NCBI RefSeq assembly: GCF_004118375.1
Contig: NZ_SDHX01000001.1
Span: 1,095,693-1,119,692, forward strand
Length of the DNA: 24,000 nt
Direction of reading: 5' to 3'
DNA from: Oleiharenicola lentus
GTDB lineage: Bacteria; Verrucomicrobiota; Verrucomicrobiia; Opitutales; Opitutaceae
A program made the position numbers and the translations under genes. The notes beneath the pieces are model-generated. The model was not told the DNA's origin. It made no database searches and was given only the letters and a program-made list of their open reading frames with translations. This document shows, one piece after another, positions 2,638 to 21,273 of the stretch. The number at the start of each line of letters is the position of its first letter. Position 1 is the stretch's first letter.

Positions 2638-3450
2638 ATGTCCACCGCCACGCTGCCCATTCCTTCGTTCCCGCTCCAACGGCCGGTTCCGGTTGCTTCG
2701 GTGTTTCTGCCGAAGGAGCACGGCTCGTGGTCGCTCGCGCTGGAACCGCTCGCGCTCGGCCTGCTGGTTGCGCCGTCGTGGGCGGGTGGGGCGTTGGCCG
2801 GGGCGGCGGTGACGGGGTTCTTTGCCCGGCGGCCGCTGAAGGCGGCCCTGGATGCAACCCCTTCTCTTCGGCGCCAGGCAGCACGGCGGGCCCTGGCCCT
2901 GTTGGTCGTGCTGGCTGGCGTCGGACTGGTTCAATCGCTCGTGCTCTCGCCGTGGACCGCCTTCTGGCCGCTGCTGCCGGCGGCGGCGCTGGGTTTGGTT
3001 TTCGTCTGGTTCGACGCGCAGGGTGAATCCCGCGCGGCGGCGGCCGAGGTGGCGGGCAGCGCGGCGTTCGCATTCGTGCCCGCGGCATTCGTCACGCTTG
3101 CCGGCGGCGACGCGCCAACCGCCTTCGCGCTCGCAGTCCTCGCGCTCGCCCGCAGCGTGCCGGCCGTGCTCGCCGTGCGCTCCTACCTCCGGATGGCGAA
3201 AGGCGGGGCTCCGCGCCGCACGCTCTCGCTGGTCGCGGCGGCGGTCGCGCTCCTGGCTTCGCTCGGCCTGGTGCTGACCGCCCACATGCCTTCCGTCGCC
3301 GTTCCGCTGGCGGTGGTCCTTTTTGCCCGGGTCCTCTGGCTGCTGGGCCCGTGGCGTCCGACCTGGCCGGCCAAACGGATCGGCATGATGGAAGCCGCGC
3401 TCGGCCTGCTCTACGTGGCGCTGCTCGGCCTCGGCTGGCCCGCTGTGTGA
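2638..3450 (+). CDS. YwiC-like polytopic membrane protein
   Basis: The N-terminal LPKEHGSWSLALEPLALGLL resembles the P-x-x-HGAW motif that opens YwiC-like family proteins. About 8 hydrophobic segments. Sits immediately upstream of nirK, behind its own box. Confidence 0.5.
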   Translation: MSTATLPIPSFPLQRPVPVASVFLPKEHGSWSLALEPLALGLLVAPSWAGGALAGAAVTGFFARRPLKAALDATPSLRRQAARRALALLVVLAGVGLVQSLVLSPWTAFWPLLPAAALGLVFVWFDAQGESRAAAAEVAGSAAFAFVPAAFVTLAGGDAPTAFALAVLALARSVPAVLAVRSYLRMAKGGAPRRTLSLVAAAVALLASLGLVLTAHMPSVAVPLAVVLFARVLWLLGPWRPTWPAKRIGMMEAALGLLYVALLGLGWPAV

Positions 3451-3461
3451 AGCGCCAACCT

Positions 3462-3475
3462 TTGATCCGTATCAA
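3462..3475 (+). promoter_or_regulatory. FNR/Dnr-type box 2 (TTGATCCGTATCAA, then ggc), perfect consensus half-sites
   Basis: Perfect TTGAT-N4-ATCAA. TACTCT lies at 3498-3503 (22-bp spacer). The nirK ATG is at 3528. Confidence 0.75.
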
Positions 3476-3527
3476 GGCATCGCCCCGCGCTCTTCGCTAC
3501 TCTCACCCCCCCAGAAACCCAACCGCC

Positions 3528-5027
3528 ATGAAAACATCCCGCGTAATCCCCGCCGCTCTCCTCGCCCTGGTGCTCGCCGCGCCTGCTTTCGCCTCCGAGG
3601 GCCCGACCGATGCCAAGGGCCCGGTCCTGCTGCCGCCCGACGTGCAGGCCCTGCCGGTCGAGCAGGCCATCCTCACCGCGCCACCCCACGTGCCGCCACC
3701 GATCAAGCGCAAGCACGCTGCGCGCGTCGTCGTTAACCTCGAGGTGCGTGAGGTCGTCATGCGCATCGCCGACGGCGCCGAATACACCTTCTGGACCTAC
3801 GGCGGCTCCGTGCCCGGCTCGTTCATCCGCATCCGCGAGGGCGATGTCGTGGAGTTCACGCTCAACAACCACCCGTCCTCGAAGCTCCCGCACAACATCG
3901 ACCTTCACGCCGTCACGGGCCCCGGCGGCGGCGCGGCCTCGACCTTCACCGCGCCGGGCCACGGCTCGAAGTTTACTTTCAAGGCCCTCAACCCCGGCCT
4001 CTACGTCTATCACTGCGCGACAGCGCCCGTGCCCATGCACATCGGCAACGGCATGTATGGCTTGATCCTCGTCGAGCCGAAGGACGGCCTGCCGTCCGTG
4101 GACAAGGAGTTCTACGTCATGCAGGGCGAGTTCTACACTCAGGGCGGCTTCGGCGCCTCCGGCCTGCAGACTTTCGACATGGCGAAGTCCATCGATGAAC
4201 ACCCCACCTATGTCCTCTTCAACGGCTCGGTCGGCGCACTCGTCGGCGACAAGGCCCTGGACACCAAGGTCGGCGACCACGTGCGCGTCTATTTCGGCGT
4301 GGGCGGTCCCAACCTTACCTCCTCGTTCCACGTCATCGGCGAAATTTTCGACAAGGTCTGGACCGAGGGCGGCATGAAATACGCCCAGGAACACGTGCAG
4401 ACGACGATGGTCCCCTCGGGCGGTTCGGCCATCCTTGAGTTCAAGATGGACGTGCCCGGCACCTACGTGCTCGTGGACCACTCGCTCAGCCGCGCGTTCA
4501 ACAAGGGTGCGCTCGGCATGCTCAAGGCCTCCGGTCCCGAGGACCGCGTGATCTACTCCGGCAAGGAGATCGACGCCGTTTATTTCGGTGCCGCCGCCGA
4601 AGAGGGTTCCGCCTCCGCCCGGCGCGAGGCCGAGCTGAAGGCGAAGATCGCGGCCGAGATCAAATCCAACCCCGCCATCGCCAGCCTCACCAAGGAGGTG
4701 CAGCTCGAGCGCGGCAAGCAGGTCTATATGGCCAGCTGCTTCGCCTGCCACCTGCCCGACGGCAAGGGCATGGCCAACGTCTTCCCGCCGCTCGCCGGTT
4801 CCGACTACCTCAAGGCCGACCGCGACCGCGCGATCCGCATCGTGCTCAAGGGCCTCACCGGCCCGGTCACCGTCAACGGCGTGAACTACAACAGCGCCAT
4901 GCCGCCGCAACCGCTCACCGACGAGCAGGTCGCCGACGTGCTCACCTACGTGACGAACAGCTGGGGCAACGAAGGCCCCGCCACCACCGTGGACGACGTC
5001 CGCCGCGTGAAGAACGAGACACACTAA
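3528..5027 (+). CDS. nirK: copper-containing nitrite reductase NirK with fused C-terminal mono-haem cytochrome c domain
   Basis: Signal peptide MKTSRVIPAALLALVLAAPAFA. T1/T2 copper ligands in HNIDLHAV and YVYHCATAPVPMHIGNGMYG (AniA-like class). The C-terminal domain carries CFACH plus a distal SAMPP methionine. The track ORF start (3351) would read through the promoter, so ATG 3528 is preferred. Confidence 0.9.
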   Translation: MKTSRVIPAALLALVLAAPAFASEGPTDAKGPVLLPPDVQALPVEQAILTAPPHVPPPIKRKHAARVVVNLEVREVVMRIADGAEYTFWTYGGSVPGSFIRIREGDVVEFTLNNHPSSKLPHNIDLHAVTGPGGGAASTFTAPGHGSKFTFKALNPGLYVYHCATAPVPMHIGNGMYGLILVEPKDGLPSVDKEFYVMQGEFYTQGGFGASGLQTFDMAKSIDEHPTYVLFNGSVGALVGDKALDTKVGDHVRVYFGVGGPNLTSSFHVIGEIFDKVWTEGGMKYAQEHVQTTMVPSGGSAILEFKMDVPGTYVLVDHSLSRAFNKGALGMLKASGPEDRVIYSGKEIDAVYFGAAAEEGSASARREAELKAKIAAEIKSNPAIASLTKEVQLERGKQVYMASCFACHLPDGKGMANVFPPLAGSDYLKADRDRAIRIVLKGLTGPVTVNGVNYNSAMPPQPLTDEQVADVLTYVTNSWGNEGPATTVDDVRRVKNETH

Positions 5028-5091: not shown

Positions 5092-5958
5092 ATGACTGCC
5101 ACCGTCCGCCGCGTCCGCCCTCCCGTCTGCGGCTCCGCCCTGTGTAACGTAATACGTTACACATGTGCCGGGGTGGCGCTCTTGGTGTTGACGGGCGTGG
5201 CCTTGGGTGGATCGGAAATCGAAAATCCTAATTCAAAAATCGAAAATGCCGCCATGCGGATGGTGCCGTCCGGCACCTATGTGCCCCTCCAACGCTCGAC
5301 CAAGGACCCCGAGCAGGTGCCCGTCGCCGCCTTCCGGCTCGACACCGCGCCCGTCACCAACGCCGACTTCCTCGCCTTCGTCACTGCCAACCCGAAGTGG
5401 CGTCGCTCCGCCGTGAGCCGGCTTTTCGCCGACACCTCCTATCTGGAGCACTGGACCGGCGACCTCGAGCCCGGCTTGCGCGCTCCGCTCGACGCCCCCG
5501 TCGTGCGCGTGTCGTGGTTCGCCGCGCGCGCCTACGCCCGCTGGTCCGGCAAGCGCCTGCCCAGCACCGCCGAGTGGGAACTCGCCGCCGCCGCCGGCTA
5601 CACCACCGCCTTCGGCAAGAACGAACCCGACTTCAACCGCGACCTCTACGCCTGGCTCGCCCGCCCGGTGCCGGAGGTGCTGCCCTCGGTCGCCACCGCC
5701 AAGCCCACGCTCCACGGCGTGCGCGGCCTGCACGGTCTCGTGTGGGAATGGGTGGACGACTTCAACACCGCCATGGTCACCGGTGAATCGCGCGCCGACA
5801 CCGGTCTGGAGCGCGACCTCTTCTGCGGCGCCGGAGCCGCCGGGGCGAAGGAGACGAGCGACTACGCCGCCTTCATGCGCTCCGCCCTTCGTGCCTCCCT
5901 GAAAGCCAACAACACCACCACCTCGCTCGGCTTCCGCTGCGCGGCTTCTCTCCGATGA
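5092..5958 (+). CDS. nirV: FGE-sulfatase/SUMF1-family protein, NirV-like
   Basis: MVPSGTY...RVSWFAARAYARWSGKRLPSTAEWELAA...GLHGLVWEWVDD...LGFRCA are the conserved blocks of the formylglycine-generating-enzyme fold. Position directly after nirK matches the known nirK-nirV arrangement. Confidence 0.7.
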   Translation: MTATVRRVRPPVCGSALCNVIRYTCAGVALLVLTGVALGGSEIENPNSKIENAAMRMVPSGTYVPLQRSTKDPEQVPVAAFRLDTAPVTNADFLAFVTANPKWRRSAVSRLFADTSYLEHWTGDLEPGLRAPLDAPVVRVSWFAARAYARWSGKRLPSTAEWELAAAAGYTTAFGKNEPDFNRDLYAWLARPVPEVLPSVATAKPTLHGVRGLHGLVWEWVDDFNTAMVTGESRADTGLERDLFCGAGAAGAKETSDYAAFMRSALRASLKANNTTTSLGFRCAASLR

Positions 5959-6722
5959 AAACGACGATTCCCCTGATCACCCTCCTCTTCGCGGCCAGCA
6001 TCGCCGCCTCCGACAAACCCGCCGCCTGCTGCCCGGCCGACACCAAGCCGAAGGCCGGCAGCTGCTGCACCGTTGAAAAGGCGGACAAGGCGGCCTGTTG
6101 CGCGGAAAAGCCCTCCGCCCCGGCCGCGTGCTGCGCGGAGAAGGCTCAACCCGCGGCGTGCTGCGCCCAAGCCGACGCACCCAAGCCCGCCGCCTGCTGC
6201 GAAGAGATCAAGGGCTCCGAAACCACCGCCTTCTCCTCCGAATCGCTTTATCAGCTCGAGGCCGGCTTTACCGACGACCGGGGCCGTTCCTTCACCCTCG
6301 GCTCGCTCCGCGGCCGCCCCGTCGTGCTCACCATGTTCTTCGCCTCCTGCAGCTACGCCTGCCCGCTGCTGCTCACCGACATGCAGGCCATCCATGCGAA
6401 GCTGCCGGCCGACATCCGCGACCGGGCTGCGTTCGTGCTCGTGTCCTTCGACGTTGCCCGCGACACGCCGGCCGCGCTCGCGCAATACCGCGCCGACCGC
6501 CACCTCGACGCGCAGTGGACGCTGCTCCACGGCGACGACGACGCGGTGCGCGAGCTCGCCGCGCTGCTCGGCGTGAAGTTCAAGCAGGAGGCCGACGGCC
6601 AGTTCGCCCACTCCAACCTCATCACCATTCTCAACGGCGGGGGCGAGGTCGTCCACCAGCGCACCGGCCTCCGCGGCGGCCTCGACGAAACCGCCCAGGC
6701 CATCGTGGCCGCGTCGCGCTGA
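5955..6722 (+). CDS. Sco1/SenC-family copper chaperone with Cys-Cys repeat N-terminal extension
   Basis: ATGA start/stop overlap with the upstream gene. Signal/anchor sequence present. Sco thioredoxin fold with VVLTMFFASCSYACP (CxxxC) and a downstream His (FAHSNLI). The region before the fold contains six CC dipeptides. Confidence 0.8.
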   Translation: MKTTIPLITLLFAASIAASDKPAACCPADTKPKAGSCCTVEKADKAACCAEKPSAPAACCAEKAQPAACCAQADAPKPAACCEEIKGSETTAFSSESLYQLEAGFTDDRGRSFTLGSLRGRPVVLTMFFASCSYACPLLLTDMQAIHAKLPADIRDRAAFVLVSFDVARDTPAALAQYRADRHLDAQWTLLHGDDDAVRELAALLGVKFKQEADGQFAHSNLITILNGGGEVVHQRTGLRGGLDETAQAIVAASR

Positions 6723-6852: not shown

Positions 6853-7281
6853 ATGACCACGGCTCTGCCGCAGATTCTCGATCAGCGCCGGCCCGAGATT
6901 CGGGCGCGGTGGGAGGCGCTGTTGCGCCTTGAAAAACCTGCCACGGCAATGGCCACGCCGGACATCCTCGTCCACCTCTTCGACCACACCCTCGACGACG
7001 TGCTGGCGCCCAAGCGTCCGGCCGGGAAACCGGTCGCCGCCGAGGGCAAACTGCCTGGCCGGTGTCATTGCAATCCGCTGCGCCCGTATTTCGCCACGCT
7101 TGAGCAGGCCCTGCTCGAAGCGCTCATCTGGGCGCAAGCCGCCGACTCCTCCCTCGACGCCGAGACCCGCGTCGCCCAGGTCGGCGAACTTTGCGAACGC
7201 CTGCGCCGCGTTGCGCACCGGGAGATCCTGCTCCTCGACGGCGTCTGCCAGTGCATCTGTGCGGAGTTGCCGCCGGCTTGA
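6853..7281 (+). CDS. hypothetical 142-aa soluble protein with CHC and CQCIC motifs
   Basis: Normal composition and an ATG start. The N-terminus (ILDQRRPEIRARWEALL) is reminiscent of RsbRD_N-type helical sensor domains. Its TGA stop lies inside box 3. Confidence 0.45.
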   Translation: MTTALPQILDQRRPEIRARWEALLRLEKPATAMATPDILVHLFDHTLDDVLAPKRPAGKPVAAEGKLPGRCHCNPLRPYFATLEQALLEALIWAQAADSSLDAETRVAQVGELCERLRRVAHREILLLDGVCQCICAELPPA

Positions 7282-7291: not shown

Positions 7292-7326
7292 GGCGGGCGC
7301 GCGTCCGGCGCGCTAGGGTGGGGGCG

Positions 7327-7836
7327 ATGAAAATCCATTCCACCCTGATCCTCCCGTTTCTCGCCGCCGGTGCGCTCCTGCTTTCCGCCTGCGGCAAATC
7401 CGAAGCTCCCGCTGCCGCCGCGTCTGCGGCAGCCCCCGCCCCTGATGGCGTGAAAGCCGTCAGCATCACCGCCGACGACAGCATGAAGTTCAGCGTGACA
7501 GAGATCCGCGCCGTGGCCGGCGAGAAGGTGCGCGTAACGTTCAAGAACGTCGGTCGCATGCCCAAGCAGGCCATGGGGCATAACTGGATTTTGCTCGTGC
7601 CGATGGCCGACAATGAAGTGCTCGCGCTCGCCCAGGCGGCCGCCGCCCGCGCGCCGGAATACCAACCGGCCGATGCCACGAAAGTTCTCGCGCACACCAA
7701 GCTGCTCGGGCCCAACGAGAGCGACACCGTCGAGTTCACCGCACCCGCCACGCCCGGCGACTATCCCTTCGTCTGCACCTTCCCCGGCCACGCGGCCCTG
7801 ATGAAGGGCAAACTCATCGTCGCGCCCAAGTCTTGA
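7327..7836 (+). CDS. azu: lipoprotein azurin (type-1 blue copper protein)
   Basis: Lipobox LLLSAC. Azurin signatures AMGHNWIL and YPFVCTFPGHAALMKG supply the His, Cys, His and Met copper ligands. Confidence 0.85.
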   Translation: MKIHSTLILPFLAAGALLLSACGKSEAPAAAASAAAPAPDGVKAVSITADDSMKFSVTEIRAVAGEKVRVTFKNVGRMPKQAMGHNWILLVPMADNEVLALAQAAAARAPEYQPADATKVLAHTKLLGPNESDTVEFTAPATPGDYPFVCTFPGHAALMKGKLIVAPKS

Positions 7837-7846: not shown

Positions 7847-7881
7847 GGCCGCGCGCGGCGCGGCCTGCTACAACCTTCGTG

Positions 7882-9300
7882 ATGTCTGCCCCGGCCGCCG
7901 TTCCCCTCGCGTCCCCGACCTTCGTCCCGTCTCCGGCGGTGGCGGCGGCCGGTGCGCGTTTTCCCGCCGCGGCCCGCGGTTGGTTCGCCTTTGGCGTCGG
8001 CAGCCTCGTGCTTGCGGGTCTGCTCTCGCTCCTGCTCGTCGTCGGCCGCCTGCCGTTCCTAGGCTGGCTGTTCACCGACCCGCTGTTCTTCAAACGCGCC
8101 CTCGTGGTGCATGTCGATCTGGCAATCGTCATCTGGTTTCAGGCCGGCGCCCTCGCGTATCTCGCCTGGGCGGTCGGCTCCCGGGTGCCACGCGGCCTCA
8201 CCGTCGCGTCGGTCGTGCTCGCCGGGCTCGGCATCCTTGGCCTGCTGGCCGGCGCGGTGATGCCGGGGGCACAGCCCATCCTCGCCAACTACGTGCCGGT
8301 CGTGGATCACCCGGTGTTTGTTGCCGGGCTCGTGGCGTGGTTCGCCGGCAGCGGCCTGTATTTTGCCGGCGCGCTCGCGGTGCCGGCGGAGCCGTCGGCG
8401 GCGCTGCCCGATGACGCGCTCGTCGCGCTGCGTGCCTCGGCCGCGGCGCACCTCATCGCGCTGGCGACCTTCGCCGCGGCTTGGCGCACGACGCTGCCGG
8501 GCCTGCCGGCCATCGGCTACTACGAGTTGGTGGCCTGGGGCGGGGGACACGTCATGCAGGTCGGCAACGTCGCCCTGATGCTCGGGCTGTGGTTGCTCCT
8601 GCTCCGCCGCTGGTCCGGCGAGAGCGTGGTCTCGCCCGCCACCATCCGCTGGCTGGCGGTGGCGCTGGTGCTGCCGCAGGCGGTGATGCCCTGGGTGGCC
8701 TGGGGCGGCACGTCGCGGCCGGCTTATTCCGAGATCGCGACGCAGCTGATGCGATGGACGATTTTCCCCGTGGTTCTGATCGTGCTCGGCCTGGGTATCC
8801 GGCACGTCGTGCGGCATGCGGCGAACCGCTCCGCCGGGGGCGGCTGGCGCCTCGTCGGCCTCGCCGGCAGCGCGCTGCTCACCGTGCTGGGCTTCGTGCT
8901 CGGCGCCTTCATCCGCGGCTCCAGCACGCTCGTGCCGGGCCATTACCACTGCGCCATCGGCGCAGTCACTCTCGCGCTGATGACGGCGGCCTACGACTTC
9001 AGCCGCGAGGCCGCGCCGCGCGCCCTCGGCCCGTCGCCGCGGCTCATCCGCTGGCAGCTCGTGCTCTTCGGCGCGGGGCAGGCCGTGTTCGGCCTCGGCT
9101 TTGCACTGGCCGGCGCCTTCGGCCTCGGGCGCAAGCAATACGGCGTCGAGCAGCATGTGCGCTCGCTCGGCGAATACCTCGGCCTCGGCGTGATGGGCCT
9201 CGGCGGTCTCGTGGCGGTGGCCGGCGGCCTCCTCTTTCTCGCCGTCATGCTCCGCGGTCTCGCGGCGTGGCGCACGCGTTCCCTTTCCCCCTCACCATGA
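7882..9300 (+). CDS. divergent 12-TM heme-copper-oxidase subunit-I paralog lacking the helix-VII His-His pair
   Basis: Clear block homology to the subunit I at 10033: ANYVPVVDHPVF vs TSYLPLLAHPAF, WGGGHVMQVGNVALMLGLWLLL vs WGLGHQSQQVNVCAMVAVWYLL, and VPGHYHCAIGAV vs IPGHFHVTVVGG. The helix-II His (VVHVDLAIVIWF) is kept. No HH is present where SAHHLL sits in the paralog. Confidence 0.7.
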   Translation: MSAPAAVPLASPTFVPSPAVAAAGARFPAAARGWFAFGVGSLVLAGLLSLLLVVGRLPFLGWLFTDPLFFKRALVVHVDLAIVIWFQAGALAYLAWAVGSRVPRGLTVASVVLAGLGILGLLAGAVMPGAQPILANYVPVVDHPVFVAGLVAWFAGSGLYFAGALAVPAEPSAALPDDALVALRASAAAHLIALATFAAAWRTTLPGLPAIGYYELVAWGGGHVMQVGNVALMLGLWLLLLRRWSGESVVSPATIRWLAVALVLPQAVMPWVAWGGTSRPAYSEIATQLMRWTIFPVVLIVLGLGIRHVVRHAANRSAGGGWRLVGLAGSALLTVLGFVLGAFIRGSSTLVPGHYHCAIGAVTLALMTAAYDFSREAAPRALGPSPRLIRWQLVLFGAGQAVFGLGFALAGAFGLGRKQYGVEQHVRSLGEYLGLGVMGLGGLVAVAGGLLFLAVMLRGLAAWRTRSLSPSP

Positions 9301-9446
9301 AAAACGAATCCGAAAAACACCCCTGGCAGAAGGTCCTCGACAATCCGTGGCTGCTCCTGGCCCTCGGCGTCCTCGTGCCCTTCCTGTCCTACACCGCGTG
9401 GGGCTGGATCGAGCTCCTGCTCATCAAGCCCGCGCAGCTCCCCTGA
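9297..9446 (+). CDS. 49-aa single-TM membrane peptide (possible small oxidase subunit)
   Basis: ATGA overlap with the upstream stop. Sequence MKNESEKHPWQKVLDNPWLLLALGVLVPFLSYTAWGWIELLLIKPAQLP has one hydrophobic helix. It forms the last 49 codons of track ORF 8481..9446; the rest of that ORF is an Arg/Pro-rich artefact. Confidence 0.5.
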   Translation: MKNESEKHPWQKVLDNPWLLLALGVLVPFLSYTAWGWIELLLIKPAQLP

Positions 9447-9458
9447 ACCGCCGCCGCC

Positions 9459-10010
9459 ATGAGCCTCCGCCCTCTCACCTCCCCCTGGTTCCACGCCCCC
9501 GCCGGCCATGAAAAGCTCTGGCTCGGTGTCGCCATTCTCTGGTGCTTCGTGATGTCGCTGATGATGCCCTACTGGCACTTTCGCGGGAAACAGAACAGCT
9601 CCGGCGAGGCCTACGCCGTCATGCCCGCCGATTTTCTCGCGCGCACCGAGAAATTCGTCGAGGCCAACCGCGTCGGCACCTTCAAGAACCCCACGCCCAA
9701 CGCCTTCGCGGCCGAGCTGCCGCTGGTGGAGCCGCCGGCCGGCGGCGACGCCTACCTCGTGGGCCGCATGTGGCAGTGGTATCCCGCGCTGCGCCTGCGG
9801 CAGGGCGAGACCTACCGCATCCACCTCTCCGCGCTCGACCTGCAGCACGGCTTCTCGCTCCAGCCGCTCAACATGAATTTCCAGGCCGTGCCCGGCTACG
9901 ACCACGTGCTCACGCTCACGCCCACGTCGAAGGGCGAGTTCACCATCGTCTGCAACGAATTCTGCGGCATCGGGCACCACGCGATGACCGGCAAGATCTT
10001 CGTCGAATAA
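9459..10010 (+). CDS. HCO subunit II with complete CuA site (cupredoxin domain, one N-terminal TM helix)
   Basis: CuA ligands are present: DLQHGFSL (His) and CNEFCGIGHHAM (C-x-E-x-C-G-x-x-H-x-x-M). Confidence 0.8.
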   Translation: MSLRPLTSPWFHAPAGHEKLWLGVAILWCFVMSLMMPYWHFRGKQNSSGEAYAVMPADFLARTEKFVEANRVGTFKNPTPNAFAAELPLVEPPAGGDAYLVGRMWQWYPALRLRQGETYRIHLSALDLQHGFSLQPLNMNFQAVPGYDHVLTLTPTSKGEFTIVCNEFCGIGHHAMTGKIFVE

Positions 10011-10032
10011 CCCCGCGACCCTCCCGCCTCCC

Positions 10033-11757
10033 ATGACCTCCGTCTCCGCCACCTTGCCCGTCGGCCCGCACTCGTTGGCCGCGCCCGCCACGCCGAAGCG
10101 CGTCTGCGCCACCACCGGCCTCGGCGTCTGTCTCGACGCCCAGCGTTTCATCAAGCTGCACGCCGTCGTCGGCGTCGTCTTCCTGCTCCTCGGCGGCATC
10201 GCCGCGTTGCTGCTCGCCCTCACGCGCTGGCAGACCGTGCACCTGCTGCCCGCCGACTGGTTCTACCGCGTGCTGACCTTCCACGGCATCAACATGCTGA
10301 TCTTCTGGATCCTGTTCTTCGAGGTCGCCATCCTCTACTTCGCCTGCACCACGCCGCTCAACGCGCGGCTCTTCTCGCGCAAGGTGGCCTGGGTCGGCTT
10401 CGCCCTCATGGGCGTCGGCGCGGTGATGGTGGACTGGGTCATCCTCGCGGGGAAGGCCGACGTCATGATGACGTCCTACCTGCCGCTGCTCGCACACCCC
10501 GCGTTCTACCTCGGCATCATCCTCGTGGCCGTGGGCACGCTGGTCGGCGTGTTCAATTTCTTCGCCACGCTCTACGTCGCCAAGCGGGACCGCGCCTACG
10601 AAGGCTCGATGCCCATCGTGACCTTCGGCGCGCTGGCCGCGGCGATCATCGCGGTGGTCACGCTCCTGCACGGCGCCATCGTCATGATCCCGACCTTTGC
10701 CTACTCGATGGGTTGGATCGGCCAGCCCGACCCGATCTGGTATCGCATCATCTGGTGGGGCCTCGGCCACCAGTCGCAGCAGGTCAACGTCTGCGCCATG
10801 GTCGCGGTCTGGTATCTGCTCTCGCACGTCATTGTCGGCGCGCGCCCGGTCAACGAGGCGGTCTGCCGCACGGCCTTCGCGCTCTACATTTTGTTCATCA
10901 ACATCGCGTCGGCCCACCACCTGCTCGTGGACCCGGCGGTCGGCTCGGCCTGGAAGATCTGGAACACCTCCTACGCGATGTATCTCGCGGTGCTCGCGTC
11001 CATGGTCCACGGCTTCACGGTGCCGGCCGGCGTCGAGATCGCCATGCGCGAGAAGGGTTACACGCGCGGTCTCTTCGGCTGGGTCGTCGCCCTGCCGTGG
11101 CGCAACCCGGCGCTCTCGGGCACCGTGCTCTCGGTGATCATCTTCGGCTTCCTCGGCGGCATCACCGGCGTCACGCTCGGCACGCAGCAGATCAACATCA
11201 TCGCGCACAACACACTGCGCATCCCCGGCCACTTCCACGTCACCGTGGTGGGCGGCACCACCCTGGCGTTCATGGCGCTGGCCTACTACGTGATTCCGCT
11301 GTTCTTTCAGCGCGACTTCATCTGGCGCGGCCTCGCCCGCCTCCAGCCCTGGCTGTTCGGTCTCGGCATCGTCATGCTGTCCTTCGGCATGTCCTTCGCC
11401 GGCTCGATGGGCGTGTCCCGTCGCAGCTGGGACATCGACGCGCAGGGTGTTTACGGTTCGGCGGCCCACCTCTGGCTCGGTGTGCTCGGCCTCGGCGGCG
11501 TGCTGGCCTTTGTCGGCCTGCTGGCTTTCGTACTGCTGTGCGTTGGCACGCTCCTCTTCGGCGAGAAGAACCACGGTCGGCCGATGGCCGACTGGGGCAC
11601 GCCGCCCGCACTCGCCGGGGCGCAGGCCGGTTCGCTGGCCGACAACCACTCGGCGACCAAGGGCACGATCGTGCTGACCCTGGTGTTCCTGGCCTGCTTC
11701 GCGGTTTATTACTTCGCCAACTGGAAGGCGCTGGCCGACGTGTGGCCCGTGCGGTGA
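10033..11757 (+). CDS. HCO superfamily subunit I, B-family-like, lacking the cross-linked Tyr (candidate alternative NO reductase catalytic subunit)
   Basis: The helix-II haem ligand is His84 (TFHGINMLIFW). The helix-VI ligand is His246, with Gln at the +4 position where Tyr sits in O2 reductases (WWGLGHQSQQVN). Helix VII has HH (SAHHLLVDP). Helix X has PGHFHVTVVGG. Confidence 0.8.
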   Translation: MTSVSATLPVGPHSLAAPATPKRVCATTGLGVCLDAQRFIKLHAVVGVVFLLLGGIAALLLALTRWQTVHLLPADWFYRVLTFHGINMLIFWILFFEVAILYFACTTPLNARLFSRKVAWVGFALMGVGAVMVDWVILAGKADVMMTSYLPLLAHPAFYLGIILVAVGTLVGVFNFFATLYVAKRDRAYEGSMPIVTFGALAAAIIAVVTLLHGAIVMIPTFAYSMGWIGQPDPIWYRIIWWGLGHQSQQVNVCAMVAVWYLLSHVIVGARPVNEAVCRTAFALYILFINIASAHHLLVDPAVGSAWKIWNTSYAMYLAVLASMVHGFTVPAGVEIAMREKGYTRGLFGWVVALPWRNPALSGTVLSVIIFGFLGGITGVTLGTQQINIIAHNTLRIPGHFHVTVVGGTTLAFMALAYYVIPLFFQRDFIWRGLARLQPWLFGLGIVMLSFGMSFAGSMGVSRRSWDIDAQGVYGSAAHLWLGVLGLGGVLAFVGLLAFVLLCVGTLLFGEKNHGRPMADWGTPPALAGAQAGSLADNHSATKGTIVLTLVFLACFAVYYFANWKALADVWPVR

Positions 11758-11858: not shown

Positions 11859-12821
11859 ATGCTCATCCCCGCCCACGCCCCTGACGCCCCGCCGGCCGCT
11901 GCCTCCGCCGGCTCCCGCTTCTTCACCGGACCGGGCCTGCTGGTGTTTTTGGGCGCGGCGCTGACCGGCTACGAGGCGTTCCTGCTGCTGACCATCTTCG
12001 GCCCGACCGGAGAGGGTGCGCTGGGCGGCTTCGTGCGGGATTTCCAGCAATGGTGCTACCAGGGCGACCCGCGCACGGGCGGCATGTCGTGGGCCGCCGT
12101 CAGCATCATGTTGCTCGAGCCCGTCATGGTCGTGCTCGTGGCCGGAGTGCTTTGGCGCGATACGGTGGTGCAGCTGCGCTCGCCGGCGCTGTGGCTCCGC
12201 CACCTGCGGGCGGCGGCGGCCGGCCTGGTCGTGGTCGCGGCCGCGGTGGCCGGGCTGGTCGGGTATGCGCAGAGCGATCGTGCCGGCGGGGCTGTGCTCC
12301 CGCCGTTTCCCGGCGAACGCATCCGCGTGCAGCTTGCGGTGCCTGACAAGCCGCTCGTGGACCAGAAGGGCACGCCCTTCCGCCTCGCCGACCTGCGCGG
12401 GCAGGTGGTGCTCGTGACCGGCGTCTATGCCTCATGTTCGACGGCGTGCCCGGAAGTATTCAAGGAGCTGCGCGCCGTGCTGGGCGAACTGCCCGCCGCT
12501 GACCGCGCCGGGTTGCACGTCGTCGCGCTGTCGCTCAACCCCGAATACGAGACTGCCGAGATCATGGACGCCATGGCCGGCGCGCAGGGGCTGGCGTTTC
12601 CCGAGTTCCGTTACGTCAATGGCGAGCGCCCCGACGAGATGCGCGACCTGCTCAAGAGCCTGCAGTTCTCCGTCACGCGCGATCCGGAGACGGGGGTCCT
12701 GAATCACGCGAATCTCTTCCTACTGATTGATCGCGAGGGCCGCATCGCCTTCCGCTTCACGCTCGACCCGCGCCACCGCGCCTGGCTGCGCGAGGGCCTG
12801 CTGCACCTGCTCCGCGAATGA
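11859..12821 (+). CDS. membrane-anchored Sco1/SenC-family protein (multi-TM N-terminal domain plus Sco fold)
   Basis: VVLVTGVYASCSTACP (CxxxC) and a downstream NHANLFLLID His. Three to four N-terminal TM helices. Confidence 0.75.
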   Translation: MLIPAHAPDAPPAAASAGSRFFTGPGLLVFLGAALTGYEAFLLLTIFGPTGEGALGGFVRDFQQWCYQGDPRTGGMSWAAVSIMLLEPVMVVLVAGVLWRDTVVQLRSPALWLRHLRAAAAGLVVVAAAVAGLVGYAQSDRAGGAVLPPFPGERIRVQLAVPDKPLVDQKGTPFRLADLRGQVVLVTGVYASCSTACPEVFKELRAVLGELPAADRAGLHVVALSLNPEYETAEIMDAMAGAQGLAFPEFRYVNGERPDEMRDLLKSLQFSVTRDPETGVLNHANLFLLIDREGRIAFRFTLDPRHRAWLREGLLHLLRE

Positions 12822-14947
12822 GCGCACACCCGCATCCTGAACCGGACTGCGAGGCGCTGGCGGACAATCTGGGCGCTGGTCCTACGCCGGGGGCTGTTCC
12901 GCCTCAGCCGCCGGTCCGCGCCGCGCGGCTGTTTGCCGCGGGCGAAGCGCTTCTCACGCGCCTCGACACGCTGATTGAGCGCGTCTGGCCGCGGGCGCTC
13001 AATCCGCTGGCGCAGCTCGGGCCGGCGACCAACGCCATGCTGCTGCTCGCCACGCTCTCGGGCGTGCTGCTGCTGATCTGGTATTCGGCCAGTGTGCAGT
13101 CGGCGTGGTCGTCGCTGGCGGAACTGGGTCCGCGTTCCGCCGGCGGGATCGTGCGCAGCGTCCACCGCTATTCCTCGGACCTGGCGATGCTGCTCATGCT
13201 GCTGCACGCGCTCCGCACGCTGCTGGCGCGCAAGTTCGCCGATGCGCGCTGGTTGGCCTGGGTGAGCGGCGTGGGGATGCTCGGTCTCGTCTGGTTCATC
13301 GGCTGGACGGGTTACTGGCTGGTGTGGGACGAGCGCGCGCAGCTCGTTGCCACGGGCACGATGAAGGCGGTGGACGTGCTGCCGGTGTTCGGCGAGCCGA
13401 TGCTGCCGCTCTTCAACCATGACCGCACGGTGCCCTCGCTGCTGTTCTTCGTGGTGTTCTTTCTGCACATGGTGCTGCCGCTCGCGATCACCGGTGGGCT
13501 GGCCCTGCATCTGGCGCGCCTGAGCCGGTCGCGCCTGCTGCCCGACCGCCGGCTCACGGCCTGGCTCACCGGGGCGGTGTTCGTTGCGGCCCTGCTCGTG
13601 CCGGCCACCAATGCCGCGTCGGCCCATCTGGCGGTGAAGCCGGCGGCGTTCAGCCTGGACTGGTGGTTTTTGTGGCCGTTGCAACTGACCGCGCGGCTCA
13701 GCGGCCCCGGACTCTGGCTGGCGGCCGGACTGGCCGCCGCCGGACTCTTCACCGTGCCGTGGTGGCTCGCCCGCCGCCGGCTCCGCCCGGCTTTCCAGGC
13801 GACCGTGGATGTTTCTCGCTGCTTTTCATGCACGCTTTGCTCGCACGACTGCCCCTTCGGCGCCATCACGATGGTGCCGCGCACGGACGGGAAACCCTTT
13901 CCCTCGCAGGCGCAGGTGGACCCCGACCGCTGTATCGGCTGCGGCATCTGTGCCGGGGCCTGCGACACCCAGGGCATCGGGCTCGCGTGGTTCGACGCGC
14001 GGCGGGTCGGGCGCGAGCTGGAGGGAATGGTCGCGACGGAACACGCGCGCGGGGCGCGGCCGGCGATCGCCTTTGTCTGTGCGCAGGGTGACGGTGGCTG
14101 GGAACTTTTCGATCATGTGGGCTGGGCGCGGCGGCTGCCCGGCTACACGGTCCGTCCCGTGCCCTGTTCCGGTTGGGTCGAGCCGAAGCTCATCGAACGG
14201 CTCGTGACGAAGGGCGCCGCGGCCGTGCTCATCGTGGGGTGCGGCTCGGCCGAGACCTTCGGCCGCGAGGGCAACCGGTGGATGCCGGCGCGCATCTCCG
14301 GCACGCGCGAGCCTGCGCTCCGGCCCAACCGCGCCGATCCGCTTCGCGTCGCGCACGTGGACTTCGATCCGATCCGCCCGGAACGGCTGGCCATGGTGGC
14401 CGCCGGTCTGCTCCGGGCGGCAGACCCGGCCCCGGCGGTGCACACCGGGCGCACCGCGGGCTGGCTCGCGGGCCTCGGCGTCGCGGTGGCCGGACTGGCC
14501 GGGCTGCTGGCGCTGGCGAACGCGCCATTCCGCAGCCCCGAGCCGCCGGAGCCGGAGTTCATCGTGATGTTCCGCACTTACGGCGACTGGGTCGAAGGCG
14601 TGGCCGCCGACGCGACGCCGGCGGGCGAGGACCAGCGACCGGTGCACATGCGCGCCGCGCAACCGGTGCAGCGCACGCGGCAACCGGTGGTCGTGCGGGT
14701 GACGGTCAACGGCCGCACCGAGGAGCACGTCGTGCGCCCCAAGGGTTTTACTTCCGACGGCATGGCGGTCGGCGAGGTGCGGTGGCGTCTCGCGCCCGGG
14801 GCCCAAACCGCCGAGGTTTACCTGTGGACCCGCGGTGACACCACGGGCGAGCCGGCCCGCCGTTGGCGCGCCGAGTGGACCGCGCAGGCTCGACGCCGAC
14901 ATGTCCTCGCCTACGAGCCCGAAGCCGGTTTTATCTGGGCGCCCTGA
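12818..14947 (+). CDS. fusion protein: di-haem cytochrome b domain + 2x[4Fe-4S] ferredoxin + MvhD/FlpD-like domain + TM helix + C-terminal domain of unknown function
   Basis: ATGA overlap with the upstream gene. Two His pairs are spaced 14 residues apart: SVH116...LLH130 and FLH217...LH231. GWTGYWLVWDERAQ resembles the cytochrome b G-Y-x-L-P-W motif. Two ferredoxin motifs: CFSCTLCSHDCP and CIGCGICAGAC. AFVCAQGDG...PCSGWVEPKLIERLVTKGAAAVLIVGCG resembles hydrogenase delta-subunit-like domains. Confidence 0.65.
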   Translation: MSAHPHPEPDCEALADNLGAGPTPGAVPPQPPVRAARLFAAGEALLTRLDTLIERVWPRALNPLAQLGPATNAMLLLATLSGVLLLIWYSASVQSAWSSLAELGPRSAGGIVRSVHRYSSDLAMLLMLLHALRTLLARKFADARWLAWVSGVGMLGLVWFIGWTGYWLVWDERAQLVATGTMKAVDVLPVFGEPMLPLFNHDRTVPSLLFFVVFFLHMVLPLAITGGLALHLARLSRSRLLPDRRLTAWLTGAVFVAALLVPATNAASAHLAVKPAAFSLDWWFLWPLQLTARLSGPGLWLAAGLAAAGLFTVPWWLARRRLRPAFQATVDVSRCFSCTLCSHDCPFGAITMVPRTDGKPFPSQAQVDPDRCIGCGICAGACDTQGIGLAWFDARRVGRELEGMVATEHARGARPAIAFVCAQGDGGWELFDHVGWARRLPGYTVRPVPCSGWVEPKLIERLVTKGAAAVLIVGCGSAETFGREGNRWMPARISGTREPALRPNRADPLRVAHVDFDPIRPERLAMVAAGLLRAADPAPAVHTGRTAGWLAGLGVAVAGLAGLLALANAPFRSPEPPEPEFIVMFRTYGDWVEGVAADATPAGEDQRPVHMRAAQPVQRTRQPVVVRVTVNGRTEEHVVRPKGFTSDGMAVGEVRWRLAPGAQTAEVYLWTRGDTTGEPARRWRAEWTAQARRRHVLAYEPEAGFIWAP

Positions 14948-15019: not shown

Positions 15020-15253
15020 ATGAAACCAAGCCATTTCAAGACCTTCGATGTCCGGCCGCTGCTGGCGCGCGGCGAGGAGCCCTTCGATGCCATCCGCTCG
15101 CGCGTGGATGCGCTTGCGGCGGGGCAGGGCGTCACGATCCTCGCGCCCTTCATGCCCGCGCCTCTTATTGAGCTGCTGAAGAGCGAAGGCTTCGCGTCCG
15201 CGATGGAGCACCGCGCCGACGGCGCGTGGGCCGTGAGTTTCTGGCGGGAGTGA
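15020..15253 (+). CDS. DUF2249-domain protein (77 aa)
   Basis: FDVRPLLARGEEPFDAIRSRVDALAAGQGVTILAPFMPAPLIELL...GAWAVSFWR matches the DUF2249 pattern (DVR, then short helices, then P-x-PL, then W-x-V). This family commonly accompanies hemerythrin/NO-responsive genes. Confidence 0.6.
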   Translation: MKPSHFKTFDVRPLLARGEEPFDAIRSRVDALAAGQGVTILAPFMPAPLIELLKSEGFASAMEHRADGAWAVSFWRE

Positions 15254-15341: not shown

Positions 15342-15818
15342 ATGACCCTGCCCCCGCCTCGCACCCGCATGCTTCTGCTCGTGGCCATCGCCGCCACGCT
15401 GGGACTGTTCGCGGGCCTCGGCGGCTATACGTTTACCTACGCGCACGGGCTGTCGTATTTTTCCAACGACCCCACGGCGTGCGTGAACTGCCACATCATG
15501 CGCGAGCAGTTCGACGGCTGGCTGAAGGGCCCGCACCATGCCGTCGCCACCTGCAACGACTGCCACACGCCGCACAGCTTCATCCCGAAATACCTCAGCA
15601 AGGCCGAAAACGGCTTCTGGCACTCCAAGGGTTTCACGCTCCAGGATTTTCACGAGCCGATCATCATCCGCAAACGGAACATCGCCGTGCTCCAGGAAAA
15701 CTGCGTGTCCTGCCACCAGCAGATCGTGGATGGCATCAACACCCACCCCGGCGACCCGCAGAAGATGCTCGATTGTCTCCATTGTCACCGCGAGGTCGGC
15801 CACGGGCCGATGAAGTGA
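15342..15818 (+). CDS. nrfH: NrfH/NapC-family membrane tetrahaem cytochrome c quinol dehydrogenase
   Basis: N-terminal TM helix. Four CxxCH motifs: CVNCH, CNDCH, CVSCH, CLHCH. Typical size of about 160 aa. Confidence 0.85.
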
Positions 15819-15834
15819 ACTTTCATTCAACCGC

Positions 15835-15965
15835 CACGAATGAACACGAATACACTCGAATCAGAACCAACCCAACGCGCGCGTCATCCTGAGCCGTGCG
15901 AAGGATCCAAGGGGAAGTCGCATCACGCGCCGTCTGCCTGGATCCTTCGCTGCGCTCAGGATGAC
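15835..15965. repeat. composite intergenic repeat element: three tandem 10-mers, then an imperfect 27-bp inverted repeat
   Basis: Tandem 10-mers CACGAATGAA / CACGAATACA / CTCGAATCAG occupy 15835-15864. GTCATCCTGAGCCGTGCGAAGGATCCA (15883-15909) pairs with TGGATCCTTCGCTGCGCTCAGGATGAC (15939-15965). GC content is locally lower than in the flanks. Confidence 0.65.
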
Positions 15966-16038
15966 GGTGCGGGGAGTTTTGCGACGTTCGGGTCGTTCAT
16001 CCGTAGATTTATAACCTAGCTGCCTCGCCCCTCCCGCC

Positions 16039-17505
16039 ATGAAAACCACCCCCGACTCCCGTCAGCACGGCCTCGCCACCTGGGCGCTCATCGCGATCCT
16101 CGCCGCCACGGCCGGCGCCACCTTTCTCACGCTGATGCTCTACCAGAACATCGTCGCCCGGAAGGCCGAGGCCACCAAGGACGTGTTCCGCGTCGTCGAG
16201 GTGAGCGACGAGACCGTGGACCCCGCGATCTGGGGCAAGAACTACCCGCGCCAATACGACAGCTACCGGCGCACCGTGGACACCGAGCGCACGAACCACG
16301 GTGGCAGCGAGGCCTTCCAGCACCTCGACAAGGATCCGGTGTGGCGCCGGCTGTTTGCGGGCTACGCCTTCGCCGTGGATTACCGCGAGGAACGCGGCCA
16401 CGCCTACATGCTCATCGATCAGCGCGAGACGGAGCGAGTGAAGAACTTCAAGCAGCCCGGCGCCTGCCTCCAGTGCCACGCCTCCGCGGTGGACACCTAC
16501 CGCAAGGAGGGCATCAAGGCCGGCATCCCCGCGGGCAAGGAGCATTGGGAAGAGCAGATTCAGAAGGGCTTCGAGGTCGTCTGCGCCATGCCCTACAGCG
16601 AGGCGACCAAACTCGTGGAGCATCCGGTCTCCTGCATCGACTGTCACGACGCCGAGACCATGAACCTGCGCGTCAACCGCCCCGGCTTCCTCAACGGCAT
16701 CCGCGCGCTCGCCAATTCCGACTACCCGACGCCGCACCTGCCCAGCATCGAGCGCTGGCGCAAGGACGGTCGCAAGGGGCGCTATGAGCCCAACTCGGAC
16801 GCCACGCGCCAGGAAATGCGCTCGATGGTCTGCGCGCAGTGCCACGTCGAATATTACTTCAAGGGCGACAAGAAGCTCGTGACCTACCCGTGGGACAAGG
16901 GCCTGAAGGTCGAGCAGATCGAGACCTACTACAACGAGGTCGGGCACACCGACTTCAAGAACAAGGAGAGCGGCGCGCCCATCCTGAAGGCCCAGCACCC
17001 GGAGTTCGAGATGTGGAGCCAGGGCATTCATGCCCGCAGCGGTGTGGCCTGCGCCGACTGCCACATGCCTTATGTCCGCGAGGGCGCCATCAAGGTCAGC
17101 AACCACCATGTCCGCTCCCCGCTGCTCAACGTCGCCCAGGCCTGCCAGTCCTGTCACCGTATCCCCGAGCAGGAAATCAAGGCGCGAGCGCTCCTTGTGC
17201 AGGACCGCAACGCCGCGCTGCTCACGCGCGGCGAGGCGGCGGTGGTCGGCCTGTTGGACGCCATCGCCTTGGCCCAGAAAGCCGGCGCCACCGACGATCA
17301 GCTCAAAACCGCCCGAGACCTGCACCGCAAGGCGCAGTGGCGCCTCGACTTCGTGGCGGCCGAAAACTCGATGGGCTTCCACGCCCCGCAGGAGGCTGCG
17401 CGCATCCTCGCCGAGGCGATCGACTATGCCCGCCAGGGCGAAATCGCCGTTGCGAAGGAGACCAGGCCGGCGGGCGGCGGTGCCGTTGCGGGCGCCCTGA
17501 AGTAA
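16039..17505 (+). CDS. nrfA: pentahaem cytochrome c nitrite reductase NrfA (CxxCH active-site variant)
   Basis: Signal/anchor sequence present. Five haem motifs: CLQCH, CIDCH, CAQCH, CADCH, CQSCH. CAQCHVEYYF is the conserved NrfA Ca-site/active-site block. Confidence 0.9.
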   Translation: MKTTPDSRQHGLATWALIAILAATAGATFLTLMLYQNIVARKAEATKDVFRVVEVSDETVDPAIWGKNYPRQYDSYRRTVDTERTNHGGSEAFQHLDKDPVWRRLFAGYAFAVDYREERGHAYMLIDQRETERVKNFKQPGACLQCHASAVDTYRKEGIKAGIPAGKEHWEEQIQKGFEVVCAMPYSEATKLVEHPVSCIDCHDAETMNLRVNRPGFLNGIRALANSDYPTPHLPSIERWRKDGRKGRYEPNSDATRQEMRSMVCAQCHVEYYFKGDKKLVTYPWDKGLKVEQIETYYNEVGHTDFKNKESGAPILKAQHPEFEMWSQGIHARSGVACADCHMPYVREGAIKVSNHHVRSPLLNVAQACQSCHRIPEQEIKARALLVQDRNAALLTRGEAAVVGLLDAIALAQKAGATDDQLKTARDLHRKAQWRLDFVAAENSMGFHAPQEAARILAEAIDYARQGEIAVAKETRPAGGGAVAGALK

Positions 17506-20440: not shown

Positions 20441-20538
20441 GCCCACGGTGATGCGCGCTCCGTGGCCCGACGGTCAAGTCGCCAGACGGCACACTTCAGG
20501 CGCGACTTGCGCGCAAACCCCGTGCTAGCTTGCGCCCG

Positions 20539-21273
20539 ATGCCGACCGCCCCACGCGCCGCCGATCTCAAGCTAACCGGACTCGTCAGTTCCCTGCGTTG
20601 CTGCCAGCTCTTCACCGGGTTGTCACCGGAGGACCTGGCCGCCATCGCCGGCTTCACTTTGGTGCTGCGGCTGGCCAAGGACGATTATCTCTTCCACGAG
20701 GGCGAATCTTCGCGTGGTTTCTACGTCGTGCAGACCGGCGCGATCAACGTGCACCGCGTGAGCGCCGCCGGCAAGGAGCAGGTCATCCACGTGTTCCGCA
20801 TGGGCGAGTCGTTTGCCGAGGCGGCACTGGCCTCGGCCACCGGTTATCCGGCCAACGCGCGCGCGGTCGAGCCTTCCACCGTGCTGCTGATCCCCAAGGC
20901 CCCCATCCTCGAGCTGATCGGCCGCCGGCCGGATCTCGCGCTGCGCATGCTCGGCTCCATGAGCGCGCACCTGCGCGTGCTGGTGGGCGCCCTGGACGAC
21001 CTCACGCTCAAGGATGTCGAGACCCGCATGCTCAACTGGCTGGTGAAGCACGGGCGTGACGCGAAGGACGGGGTCATCGAGCTGCCCGGCACCAAGCGGG
21101 TGCTCGCGGCAGAACTGGGCACCAGCAGCGAAACGCTTTCCCGCACGCTGGCCCGGTTGCGCGATGACCGGCTCATTACGGTCGCAGCCAAGAGTATCAA
21201 GGTGCACGACGCCGCCCGGCTCGGGTCGATGCTACGCCGCAATCTCGGCGAAGTCGGCGCGCCGGGTGCTTGA
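20539..21273 (+). CDS. Crp/Fnr-family transcription factor, Dnr/NnrR/NssR-like (no FNR-type N-terminal Cys cluster)
   Basis: cNMP-binding-like beta-roll (YLFHEGESSRGFYVVQTGAINVHR...GESFAEAAL). C-terminal HTH TKRVLAAELGTSSETLSRTLARL carries the E--SR recognition motif that reads TTGAT half-sites. The track start at 20530 is TTG; the ATG is at 20539. Confidence 0.85.
   Translation: MPTAPRAADLKLTGLVSSLRCCQLFTGLSPEDLAAIAGFTLVLRLAKDDYLFHEGESSRGFYVVQTGAINVHRVSAAGKEQVIHVFRMGESFAEAALASATGYPANARAVEPSTVLLIPKAPILELIGRRPDLALRMLGSMSAHLRVLVGALDDLTLKDVETRMLNWLVKHGRDAKDGVIELPGTKRVLAAELGTSSETLSRTLARLRDDRLITVAAKSIKVHDAARLGSMLRRNLGEVGAPGA

Follow-up and report, generated by a model that had tools for sequence, protein, structure and literature searches.

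The three-histidine CuB/FeB site is regarded as a near-universal signature of the haem-copper oxidase (HCO) superfamily. The gNOR enzymes were the first HCO family reported to replace an active-site histidine, one His being changed to Asp (Murali et al., 2024). In eNOR, which is diagnosed by a conserved Gln at the position of the active-site Tyr together with the three His (PMC8756737, after Hemp and Gennis, 2008), haem As is present at both sites and ctaA often belongs to the operon (PMC11214002). A preprint on Ferrigenium straubiae names a further 'eNOR scaffold protein' of unknown function, without an analysis of its ligands, and proposes a supercomplex with eNOR (bioRxiv 10.64898/2026.01.22.701106). 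Here we analyse a stretch of 24,000 nucleotides from Oleiharenicola lentus (Opitutaceae, Verrucomicrobiota; contig NZ_SDHX01000001.1, positions 1,095,693 to 1,119,692; hereafter the window), in which the first gene of an eNOR operon encodes the hypothetical protein ESB00_04590. An earlier reading of the DNA, made without database searches (the sequence-only reading), took this protein for a paralog of HCO subunit I that keeps the haem ligands and has lost two of the three CuB/FeB histidines; we refer to it as the paralog.

An HCO Subunit-I Relative with One Remaining CuB Ligand

The open reading frame (ORF) of the paralog ends at 9300 and begins at GTG 7879 (473 amino acids) or ATG 7882 (472 amino acids); NCBI lists the protein from 7882, with 100% identity to the ORF. 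The single sequence has no match in Pfam (E ≤ 0.01), NCBIfam or PDB sequence searches, which is why it is annotated as 'hypothetical', and the Pfam COX1 family is not reached by the paralog alone but is reached by many of its relatives. Alignment to the subunit I encoded downstream (10033-11757) gave 25% identity over 411 columns by BLASTP (E=7e-14), and an hhalign profile-profile comparison of the two families gave a probability of 99.9% over 404 columns (E=5.6e-33), which bears out the block-wise homology first proposed. H78 of the paralog falls in the column of the helix-II haem His, G223-H224 in that of the helix-VI CuB His, within a motif common to both proteins (G-H-x-x-Q-x-x-N-V-x-x-M-x-x-x-W-x-L-L), and H355-Y-H357 matches the H-F-H of helix X. 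All of these residues can be read directly from the sequence and its alignment, in agreement with the sequence-only reading.

The helix-VII His-His pair, in contrast, has no counterpart. Counting without gaps from the conserved helix-VII Arg, SAHHLL stands opposite P271-W-V-A-W-G276 of the paralog, as originally read. In the profile-profile alignment AHHLLVDP of eNOR subunit I faces an 8-residue deletion, and when the family profile is aligned with ba3, H282 lies opposite Leu and H283 becomes an insertion. None of these three alignments (ungapped, profile-profile, profile against ba3) supplies a His at this place. The ligand columns hold V273 and A274 in the paralog and Leu and Ala in the family, and only H224 of helix VI remains of the three-His site. 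At His+4, where the A, B and C oxygen reductases carry a cross-linked active-site Tyr, the paralog has V228, the Val of the sequence-only reading, and most relatives have Phe (family range F, V, A or L). From the loss of both helix-VII histidines we infer that the paralog would be unable to form a CuB/FeB binuclear centre and hence would not reduce nitric oxide (NO) or O2 as HCOs do. The gNOR family likewise departs from the three-His rule, but it keeps two His and a carboxylate in a site proposed to be catalytic, whereas in the paralog family two ligands have become aliphatic (Leu/Val and Ala) and no site is left; no carboxylate stands at the helix-VII ligand columns of the paralog.

The residues around both haems are retained. 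H78 and H357 align with the ligands of the bis-His low-spin haem and occur in 480 of 480 pooled homologues, and for the high-spin haem H355 (480/480), R418 (480/480) and K419 (478/480) align with H384 and R449-R450 of ba3. In established HCO structures the R-R pair of the loop between helices XI and XII binds the haem propionates, and R418-K419 aligns with this pair in both eNOR subunit I and ba3. The paralog is predicted to bind one low-spin and one high-spin haem. A chance origin of the ligand pattern was excluded, the same pattern being present in the 480 homologues.

An AlphaFold model built with 17 homologues (predicted local distance difference test score, pLDDT, 82.5; predicted template-modelling score, pTM, 0.84) has 12 long helices. 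Foldseek matched it to subunit I of the Aquifex, Thermus ba3, bovine and cbb3 enzymes at template-modelling (TM) scores of 0.6-0.7 and 15-17% identity, with Thermus thermophilus ba3 CbaA and Aquifex ba3 (7DEG) as the best structural matches and these two and bovine subunit I at 0.65-0.70. H72, H233, H384, H386 and R449-R450 of ba3 all have equivalents in the paralog. H282/H283 and Y237 have none, and therefore a CuB site and oxygen chemistry would be impossible. Both fold and sequence homology place the paralog among HCO subunits I, and its identity as a conserved CuB-less relative of subunit I is near certain. The model and the conservation across 480 sequences together agree with the 12-transmembrane protein predicted earlier, in which both haem sites would be kept and a conventional binuclear site would be lacking. 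NnrS, a haem- and copper-containing protein of denitrifiers with 12 transmembrane helices (PF05940), gave no Pfam match to the paralog at E ≤ 0.01, and one distant locus (L089) carries NnrS as a separate gene.

The paralog has the same 12-helix fold, haem ligands, Arg pair position and helix-VI motif as eNOR subunit I, known from the Rhodothermus marinus enzyme (PMC11214002), and is encoded in the same operon. Unlike eNOR subunit I, however, it lacks both helix-VII histidines, with the 8-residue deletion there in the profile alignment, has Val or Phe in place of Gln at His+4, is about 100 residues shorter and evolves faster. Asn at His+6 is common to the two proteins (N, S or H across the family), and so is Gln at His+3, which is missing in ba3; the only PDB structures matched by the family profile are of the B family (ba3 5e-16, Aquifex 1.3e-13). 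Because the Gln at His+3 is shared with eNOR subunit I and the profile matches are limited to B-family structures, descent of the paralog family from the B-family/eNOR-type subunit I lineage appears well supported.

Other histidines could in principle supply a replacement binuclear metal site, from H309/H313 or H144/H426, and H144, H309 and H426 are indeed invariant in the close Opitutaceae clade. Among 125 sequences, however, His is found at H309 in 9, at H313 in 6, at H426 in 22 and at H144 in 91, and among 480 sequences at H309 in 114 and at H144 in 299. The model places H309 at the end of helix VIII rather than in helix VII, and further Met and Thr residues that are conserved (M291, M368) are matched by the same residues in eNOR subunit I and ba3 and are ordinary HCO features. 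We consider such a site very improbable, and the challenge that the sequence-only reading had seen in H309/H313 falls away with these counts.

A Large Family under Purifying Selection

The size of the family was defined by a profile search of 1.84 billion cluster representatives at 50% identity; of these, 1307 matched at E ≤ 1e-3 and 483 matched at E ≤ 1e-30. A search with a betaproteobacterial member as the query retrieved 6470 proteins (E ≤ 1e-20). Among 124 full-length representatives that share 29-67% identity with the paralog, the invariant histidines are exactly H78, H224, H355 and H357, and R418 is invariant too. These five residues are 100% conserved in the 480 pooled sequences, where K419, Y356, W220 and Q227 reach at least 99%, E216 97% and N137-Y138-x-P140 98-99%, and where a His-His dipeptide appears in the helix-VII segment of 2 sequences. 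In public annotation, family members are labelled 'cytochrome c oxidase subunit I' (JGI, KEGG K02274), and in the Prokaryotic Genome Annotation Pipeline relatives often go under the name 'cbb3-type cytochrome c oxidase subunit I'.

We asked whether the paralog might be a duplicated gene in decay, on its way to becoming a pseudogene. Its sequence changes faster than that of eNOR subunit I (39-70% against 62-90% identity across loci), in 9 of 10 pairs it is under less stringent purifying selection than the adjacent catalytic subunit, and, as mentioned, the sequence has no Pfam or NCBIfam match. However, the ORF is intact in every close-clade locus and syntenic across phyla, the haem ligands are invariant in hundreds of divergent clusters, pairwise ratios of non-synonymous to synonymous substitution (dN/dS) are 0.07-0.27, and the probable homologue in F. 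straubiae was detected as transcript and protein (bioRxiv 10.64898/2026.01.22.701106). Decay therefore has next to no probability in our estimate: the paralog is the product of purifying selection, and in place of the sporadic, degenerate homologues that would have pointed to a dying copy we find a large family with invariant ligands.

The Downstream Operon Encodes eNOR

The subunit I encoded downstream of the paralog keeps H84, H246, H295-H296, H400 and H402, matches ba3 at 1.9e-44 and carries Gln250 where ba3 has the cross-linked Y237. Q250, H246, H295-H296 and the remaining key histidines are invariant in 68 orthologues. The invariance of the Gln at the Tyr site identifies the downstream operon as an eNOR operon. 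The diagnostic residues of the eNOR catalytic subunit are present in the 10033-11757 gene and absent from the paralog, which has Val and a single His at the corresponding places. We rejected an assignment to sNOR (the norSY-senC-orf1 cluster of ammonia oxidisers), the Tyr position being occupied by the invariant Gln.

The sequence-only reading also described translational coupling of the paralog to a small peptide. The stop codon of the paralog does overlap the start of a 49-residue ORF (ATGA, 9297-9300), but a partnership of the two is unlikely. The peptide always lies directly 5' of the gene for eNOR subunit II, even where the paralog sits elsewhere in the operon, which is the position of the ba3 subunit IIa gene (cbaD), directly upstream of subunit II. 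Because the peptide stays with eNOR subunit II at the ba3 IIa position, the overlap reflects operon packing rather than partnership, and the peptide is most likely a IIa-like subunit of eNOR and not a partner of the paralog.

Genomic Context Follows Haem-A-Type HCOs

A scan of one genome per species with a single peptide pattern found 279 relatives, and the best 80 of the 279 were examined; they belong to Verrucomicrobiota, Myxococcota, Balneolaceae and Methylomirabilota. As far as the contigs extend (71 to eNOR subunit I and 57 to the cytochrome b/iron-sulphur, or cyt b/FeS, gene), the order paralog, peptide, eNOR subunit II, eNOR subunit I, Sco, cyt b/FeS is found in 80/80 loci. A UbiA-family gene resembling haem O synthase adjoins in 34 of the 80, divergently just 5' of the paralog in 29 and after the cyt b/FeS gene in 5, and some of the loci have nirK, an FGE-like gene and Sco upstream.

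More distant members were sampled by single look-ups and in 80 metagenome loci whose proteins share 30-36% identity with that of the window, and genes were counted in the 58 loci that span 6 kb or more. Of these, 43 encode UbiA or CtaA, 35 cyt b/FeS and 27 an eNOR-type subunit I. One arrangement, of betaproteobacterial type and exemplified by locus L157, runs peptide, eNOR subunit II, eNOR subunit I, UbiA, (Sco), cyt b/FeS, a protein of 170-190 amino acids, the paralog and a cytochrome b/2Fe-2S/FAD/NAD protein, with ctaA near operons of this type. A second type of neighbourhood is without nitrogen-oxide genes: single cases include ctaA-paralog-sco, ctaM(DUF420)-paralog-ctaB-COX2-COX1-ctaG-COX3, in which ctaB belongs to the UbiA family, and paralog-ctaB-...-surf1-COX3-ctaG-COX1-COX2. 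The profile search suggested by the sequence-only reading, for a clade without His-His beside Tyr-less HCOs, thus recovered a conserved family, but a distant clade of it adjoins ctaA, ctaB, ctaM, surf1 and aa3-type genes. Members of the family occur across phyla and with two kinds of HCO, and their tie to NO is looser than had been assumed. What all contexts share is not nitrogen-oxide metabolism but a haem-A-type HCO, accompanied by haem O/A synthases and Sco.

In F. straubiae the gene that encodes the 'eNOR scaffold protein' (IMG 2878407321) has the annotation 'hypothetical protein' and is assigned to KEGG K02274 (cytochrome c oxidase subunit I); a small hypothetical gene comes before it, and cyt b/FeS genes flank it (bioRxiv 10.64898/2026.01.22.701106). 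Its gene order is exactly that of the betaproteobacterial family members (L157, L163, L169 and others), although it lies near the end of its operon, whereas the paralog is the first gene in the window. The context that defines the scaffold protein, a gene resembling cytochrome c oxidase subunit I in an eNOR operon, is found in the window and in 80/80 related loci. On synteny and annotation, the paralog very probably belongs to the same family. The sequence-only reading had not recognised a described HCO family. This stands for the ligand pattern, of which we found no description in the searched literature, but not for the family itself, which is probably the one listed in the preprint; the family is named in that one preprint and is otherwise undescribed.

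Cyt b/FeS Proteins and a Possible Redox Partnership

The cyt b/FeS protein of the window (12818-14947) comprises, in order, a cytochrome b part (bc1/b6-type N-terminal domain), two [4Fe-4S] modules, an FlpD/MvhD-like part, one transmembrane helix and a C-terminal domain of about 100 residues (within 14408-14944) that is predicted to be all-beta. Since the transmembrane helix follows the cytoplasmic FeS/FlpD part, the beta domain should be periplasmic. It is homologous to a stand-alone protein of 167-190 amino acids encoded directly 5' of the paralog in betaproteobacterial-type eNOR operons (L157 7474-7977; L091 166-669). Among the long close-clade loci 42 of 44 carry the domain, as do 35 of 58 distant loci, and it is missing from the ctaA/ctaB/aa3 contexts. 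Pfam has no family for it, the PDB offers no significant match to its fold, and a single-sequence AlphaFold2 model (pLDDT 65) returned insignificant, generic beta-sandwich matches only. The idea that it is a copper-less cupredoxin ('pseudo-subunit II') was unsupported, with an hhalign probability of 1% against eNOR subunit II.

When the gene order shifts, the paralog directly adjoins the cyt b/FeS gene. In L089 it starts 1 nucleotide after the cyt b/FeS stop, and in L086 (1-2711, 3062-4807) it is overlapped by the gene for a 421-residue protein that consists of the FeS/FlpD/beta-domain part without cytochrome b and shows homology (1e-23) to the window protein over the C-terminal two-thirds of the latter. 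Genes for a radical SAM protein and a Crp/Fnr regulator follow in L086. In L157 the stop of the paralog is overlapped by the start, 4 nucleotides upstream, of a gene for a cytochrome b, 2Fe-2S, FAD and NAD-binding fusion (9356-11251). This fusion corresponds to the 'Cytbc1-like protein' of the Ferrigenium preprint, and its domains imply that an NAD(P)H-linked electron path may be associated with eNOR.

These arrangements raise the possibility that the paralog is a permanent redox subunit, in which a two-haem protein together with the beta domain would dock the cyt b/FeS protein (or the cytochrome b/2Fe-2S/FAD/NAD protein) and carry electrons between eNOR and a donor in the cytoplasm or at the quinol level, as a supercomplex. 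The gene adjacency and overlaps just described, the beta domain either fused to cyt b/FeS or standing alone directly 5' of the paralog, the full conservation of the haem sites and the supercomplex put forward for Ferrigenium are all in its favour. On the other hand, many members lie beside ctaA, ctaB and aa3-type genes without a cyt b/FeS or beta-domain gene, and eNOR subunit II keeps a CuA site for periplasmic donors. The two haems of HCOs lie at one depth near the outer face, and the fold is not a transmembrane wire. Furthermore, the proteome value of the Ferrigenium scaffold protein is below those of eNOR subunits I and II (28.0 against 31.6; bioRxiv 10.64898/2026.01.22.701106). We regard a permanent redox subunit as somewhat unlikely, but as the most serious rival of the accessory role discussed below.

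Locus Layout and Regulatory Boxes

The features of the window are listed in Table 1. TTGA-N6-TCAA boxes occur six times in the window against 0.14 expected (2591, 3462, 7278, 7833, 21270 and 21743), upstream of nirK, azurin and the paralog/eNOR operon and also around the Crp/Fnr gene. The paralog is the first gene behind one of them, as the sequence-only reading had it, and 56 of 77 related loci have an FNR/Dnr-type box no more than 260 nucleotides 5' of the homologue, in most cases 40-65 nucleotides before its start. The centre of the box in the window is 42.5 nucleotides 5' of ATG 7882. In at least 8 Opitutaceae loci (L001, L004-L006, L009, L010, L012, L034) the box starts 48 nucleotides before the called start and is centred at -41.5, which is class-II activator spacing, though counted to the start codon and not to the transcription start. 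This box-to-start-codon spacing suggests that the paralog mRNA may be leaderless.

Table 1. Features of the 24,000-nucleotide window
Feature	Coordinates	Strand	Remarks
nirK fused to cytochrome c	3351-5027	+	
FGE-sulfatase/NirV-like gene	5092-5958	+	
Sco (first)	5955-6722	+	
142-amino-acid protein	6853-7281	+	no family match
Azurin	7318-7836	+	
FNR/Dnr/NnrR-type box TTGATGCGCGTCAA	7833-7846	+	directly 5' of the paralog; regulatory site of the operon
CuB-less HCO subunit-I paralog	7879-9300	+	H78, H224, H355, H357, R418-K419, Q227, E216, W220
49-amino-acid single-helix peptide	9297-9446	+	probably the subunit-IIa equivalent of eNOR
eNOR subunit II, CuA cupredoxin	9459-10010	+	PF00116; motif C-x-E-x-C-G-x-x-H-x-x-M
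eNOR subunit I, intact catalytic subunit	10033-11757	+	COX1 match 7.9e-62
Sco1/SenC-type copper chaperone (second Sco)	11859-12821	+	N-terminal membrane region; syntenic in 66 loci
cyt b/FeS fusion protein, 709 amino acids	12818-14947	+	recurrent partner of the paralog
DUF2249	15020-15253	+	
nrfHA	15342-17505	+	
Crp/Fnr regulator	20530-21273	+	

The nirK start at 3351 is over-extended, since a box (3462-3475) falls within the ORF. The window encodes both the copper nitrite reductase-cytochrome c fusion, with its NirV-like FGE and Sco, and nrfHA, the ammonia-forming cytochrome c552 nitrite reductase; with both sets of genes in the same 24 kb, nitrite could go to NO or to ammonium in O. lentus. 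In a few related loci (L012, L015, L024, L050) the 142-residue ORF is again found close to the operon, on one strand or the other.

The regulatory setting bears on a further explanation, that the paralog is a stand-alone haem-only enzyme or an NO/O2-binding protein whose high-spin haem, with distal H224, Q227 and E216, forms an active site for NO scavenging or haem modification. FNR/Dnr-type control and the proximity of nirK, eNOR and nrfA would fit such a role, H224, Q227, E216 and W220, which surround the pocket of the former binuclear site, show 97-100% conservation, and in one distant locus radical SAM and FeS-protein genes adjoin the paralog. However, a sensor output domain is missing, no substrate is indicated, and we know of no HCO chemistry without a second metal. 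The members in aa3/ctaA/ctaB contexts have no nitrogen-oxide genes nearby. We consider this explanation unlikely; of the three options that the sequence-only reading had left (haem-only enzyme, NO-binding or sensing subunit, pseudo-enzyme scaffold), these contexts disfavour an NO-specific sensor or enzyme, and the scaffold is the one we favour.

Discussion

Of the explanations considered we prefer, at a confidence that stays somewhat short of probable, that the paralog binds haem, carries no copper and serves haem-A-type HCOs as an accessory or assembly partner. An accessory role in HCO biogenesis is favoured because all contexts share a haem-A-type HCO, haem O/A synthases and Sco, and because eNOR uses haem As. 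The paralog would bind two haems in the fashion of subunit I and be catalytically inert to NO and O2. In one version it would act as a surrogate subunit I that takes haem O or A(s) from CtaB/CtaA and holds it for hand-over; in another it would serve as a scaffold that stabilises eNOR subunit I while the cofactors are inserted. Loss of the copper site would spare a haem-loaded holder uncontrolled O2 or NO chemistry. Surf1/Shy1 and CtaM (DUF420), which are haem-A insertion and late assembly factors, share with the paralog a proposed role around haem A delivery and the same genomic company (ctaA, ctaB, sco, cox), but they are small proteins of 1-5 transmembrane helices with no kinship to it in sequence or fold, and thus the likeness is that they may work alike, not that they belong together.

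Several points weigh against an accessory or assembly role. The haem-A insertion factors known to us (Surf1, CtaM) are small and unrelated to the paralog, and literature searches, including reviews of oxidase assembly, turned up no HCO assembly factor resembling subunit I. The window itself contains neither ctaA nor ctaB, and azurin stands at the UbiA position. A near-perfect two-haem site with H224, Q227 and E216 resembles a working redox or active site more than a transient holder, and in eNOR contexts the tight linkage of the paralog to cyt b/FeS, at times with overlapping stop and start codons, and to a beta domain anchored by a transmembrane helix suggests a redox partnership. Finally, the probable identity with the Ferrigenium gene is based on synteny and annotation.

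A further proposal, in our view improbable, sees in the paralog not a passive scaffold but an active redox enzyme that has the HCO framework and uses haem only, acting with the beta domain and the cyt b/FeS(/FAD/NAD) proteins. It could be electron-fed haem handling, making or maturing haem A(s) for eNOR at low O2, or alternatively an electron-input module that would make eNOR a cytoplasm- or quinol-linked supercomplex. Mitochondrial Cox15 requires ferredoxin and ferredoxin reductase.

Whichever function applies, the paralog family comprises thousands of sequences from several phyla in which two of the three CuB/FeB ligands are gone while all haem determinants are kept under purifying selection. 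Counts of oxidases and NO reductases by database labels in genome and metagenome surveys are inflated by it. The family has a genetic link to eNOR, an enzyme that is widespread and produces N2O, and in other clades to haem O/A synthases and aa3-type oxidases. If the paralog is an assembly partner, it would be a missing piece of the route by which haem A(s) reaches subunit I, and if it is redox-active, it would change the view of how eNOR is supplied with electrons.

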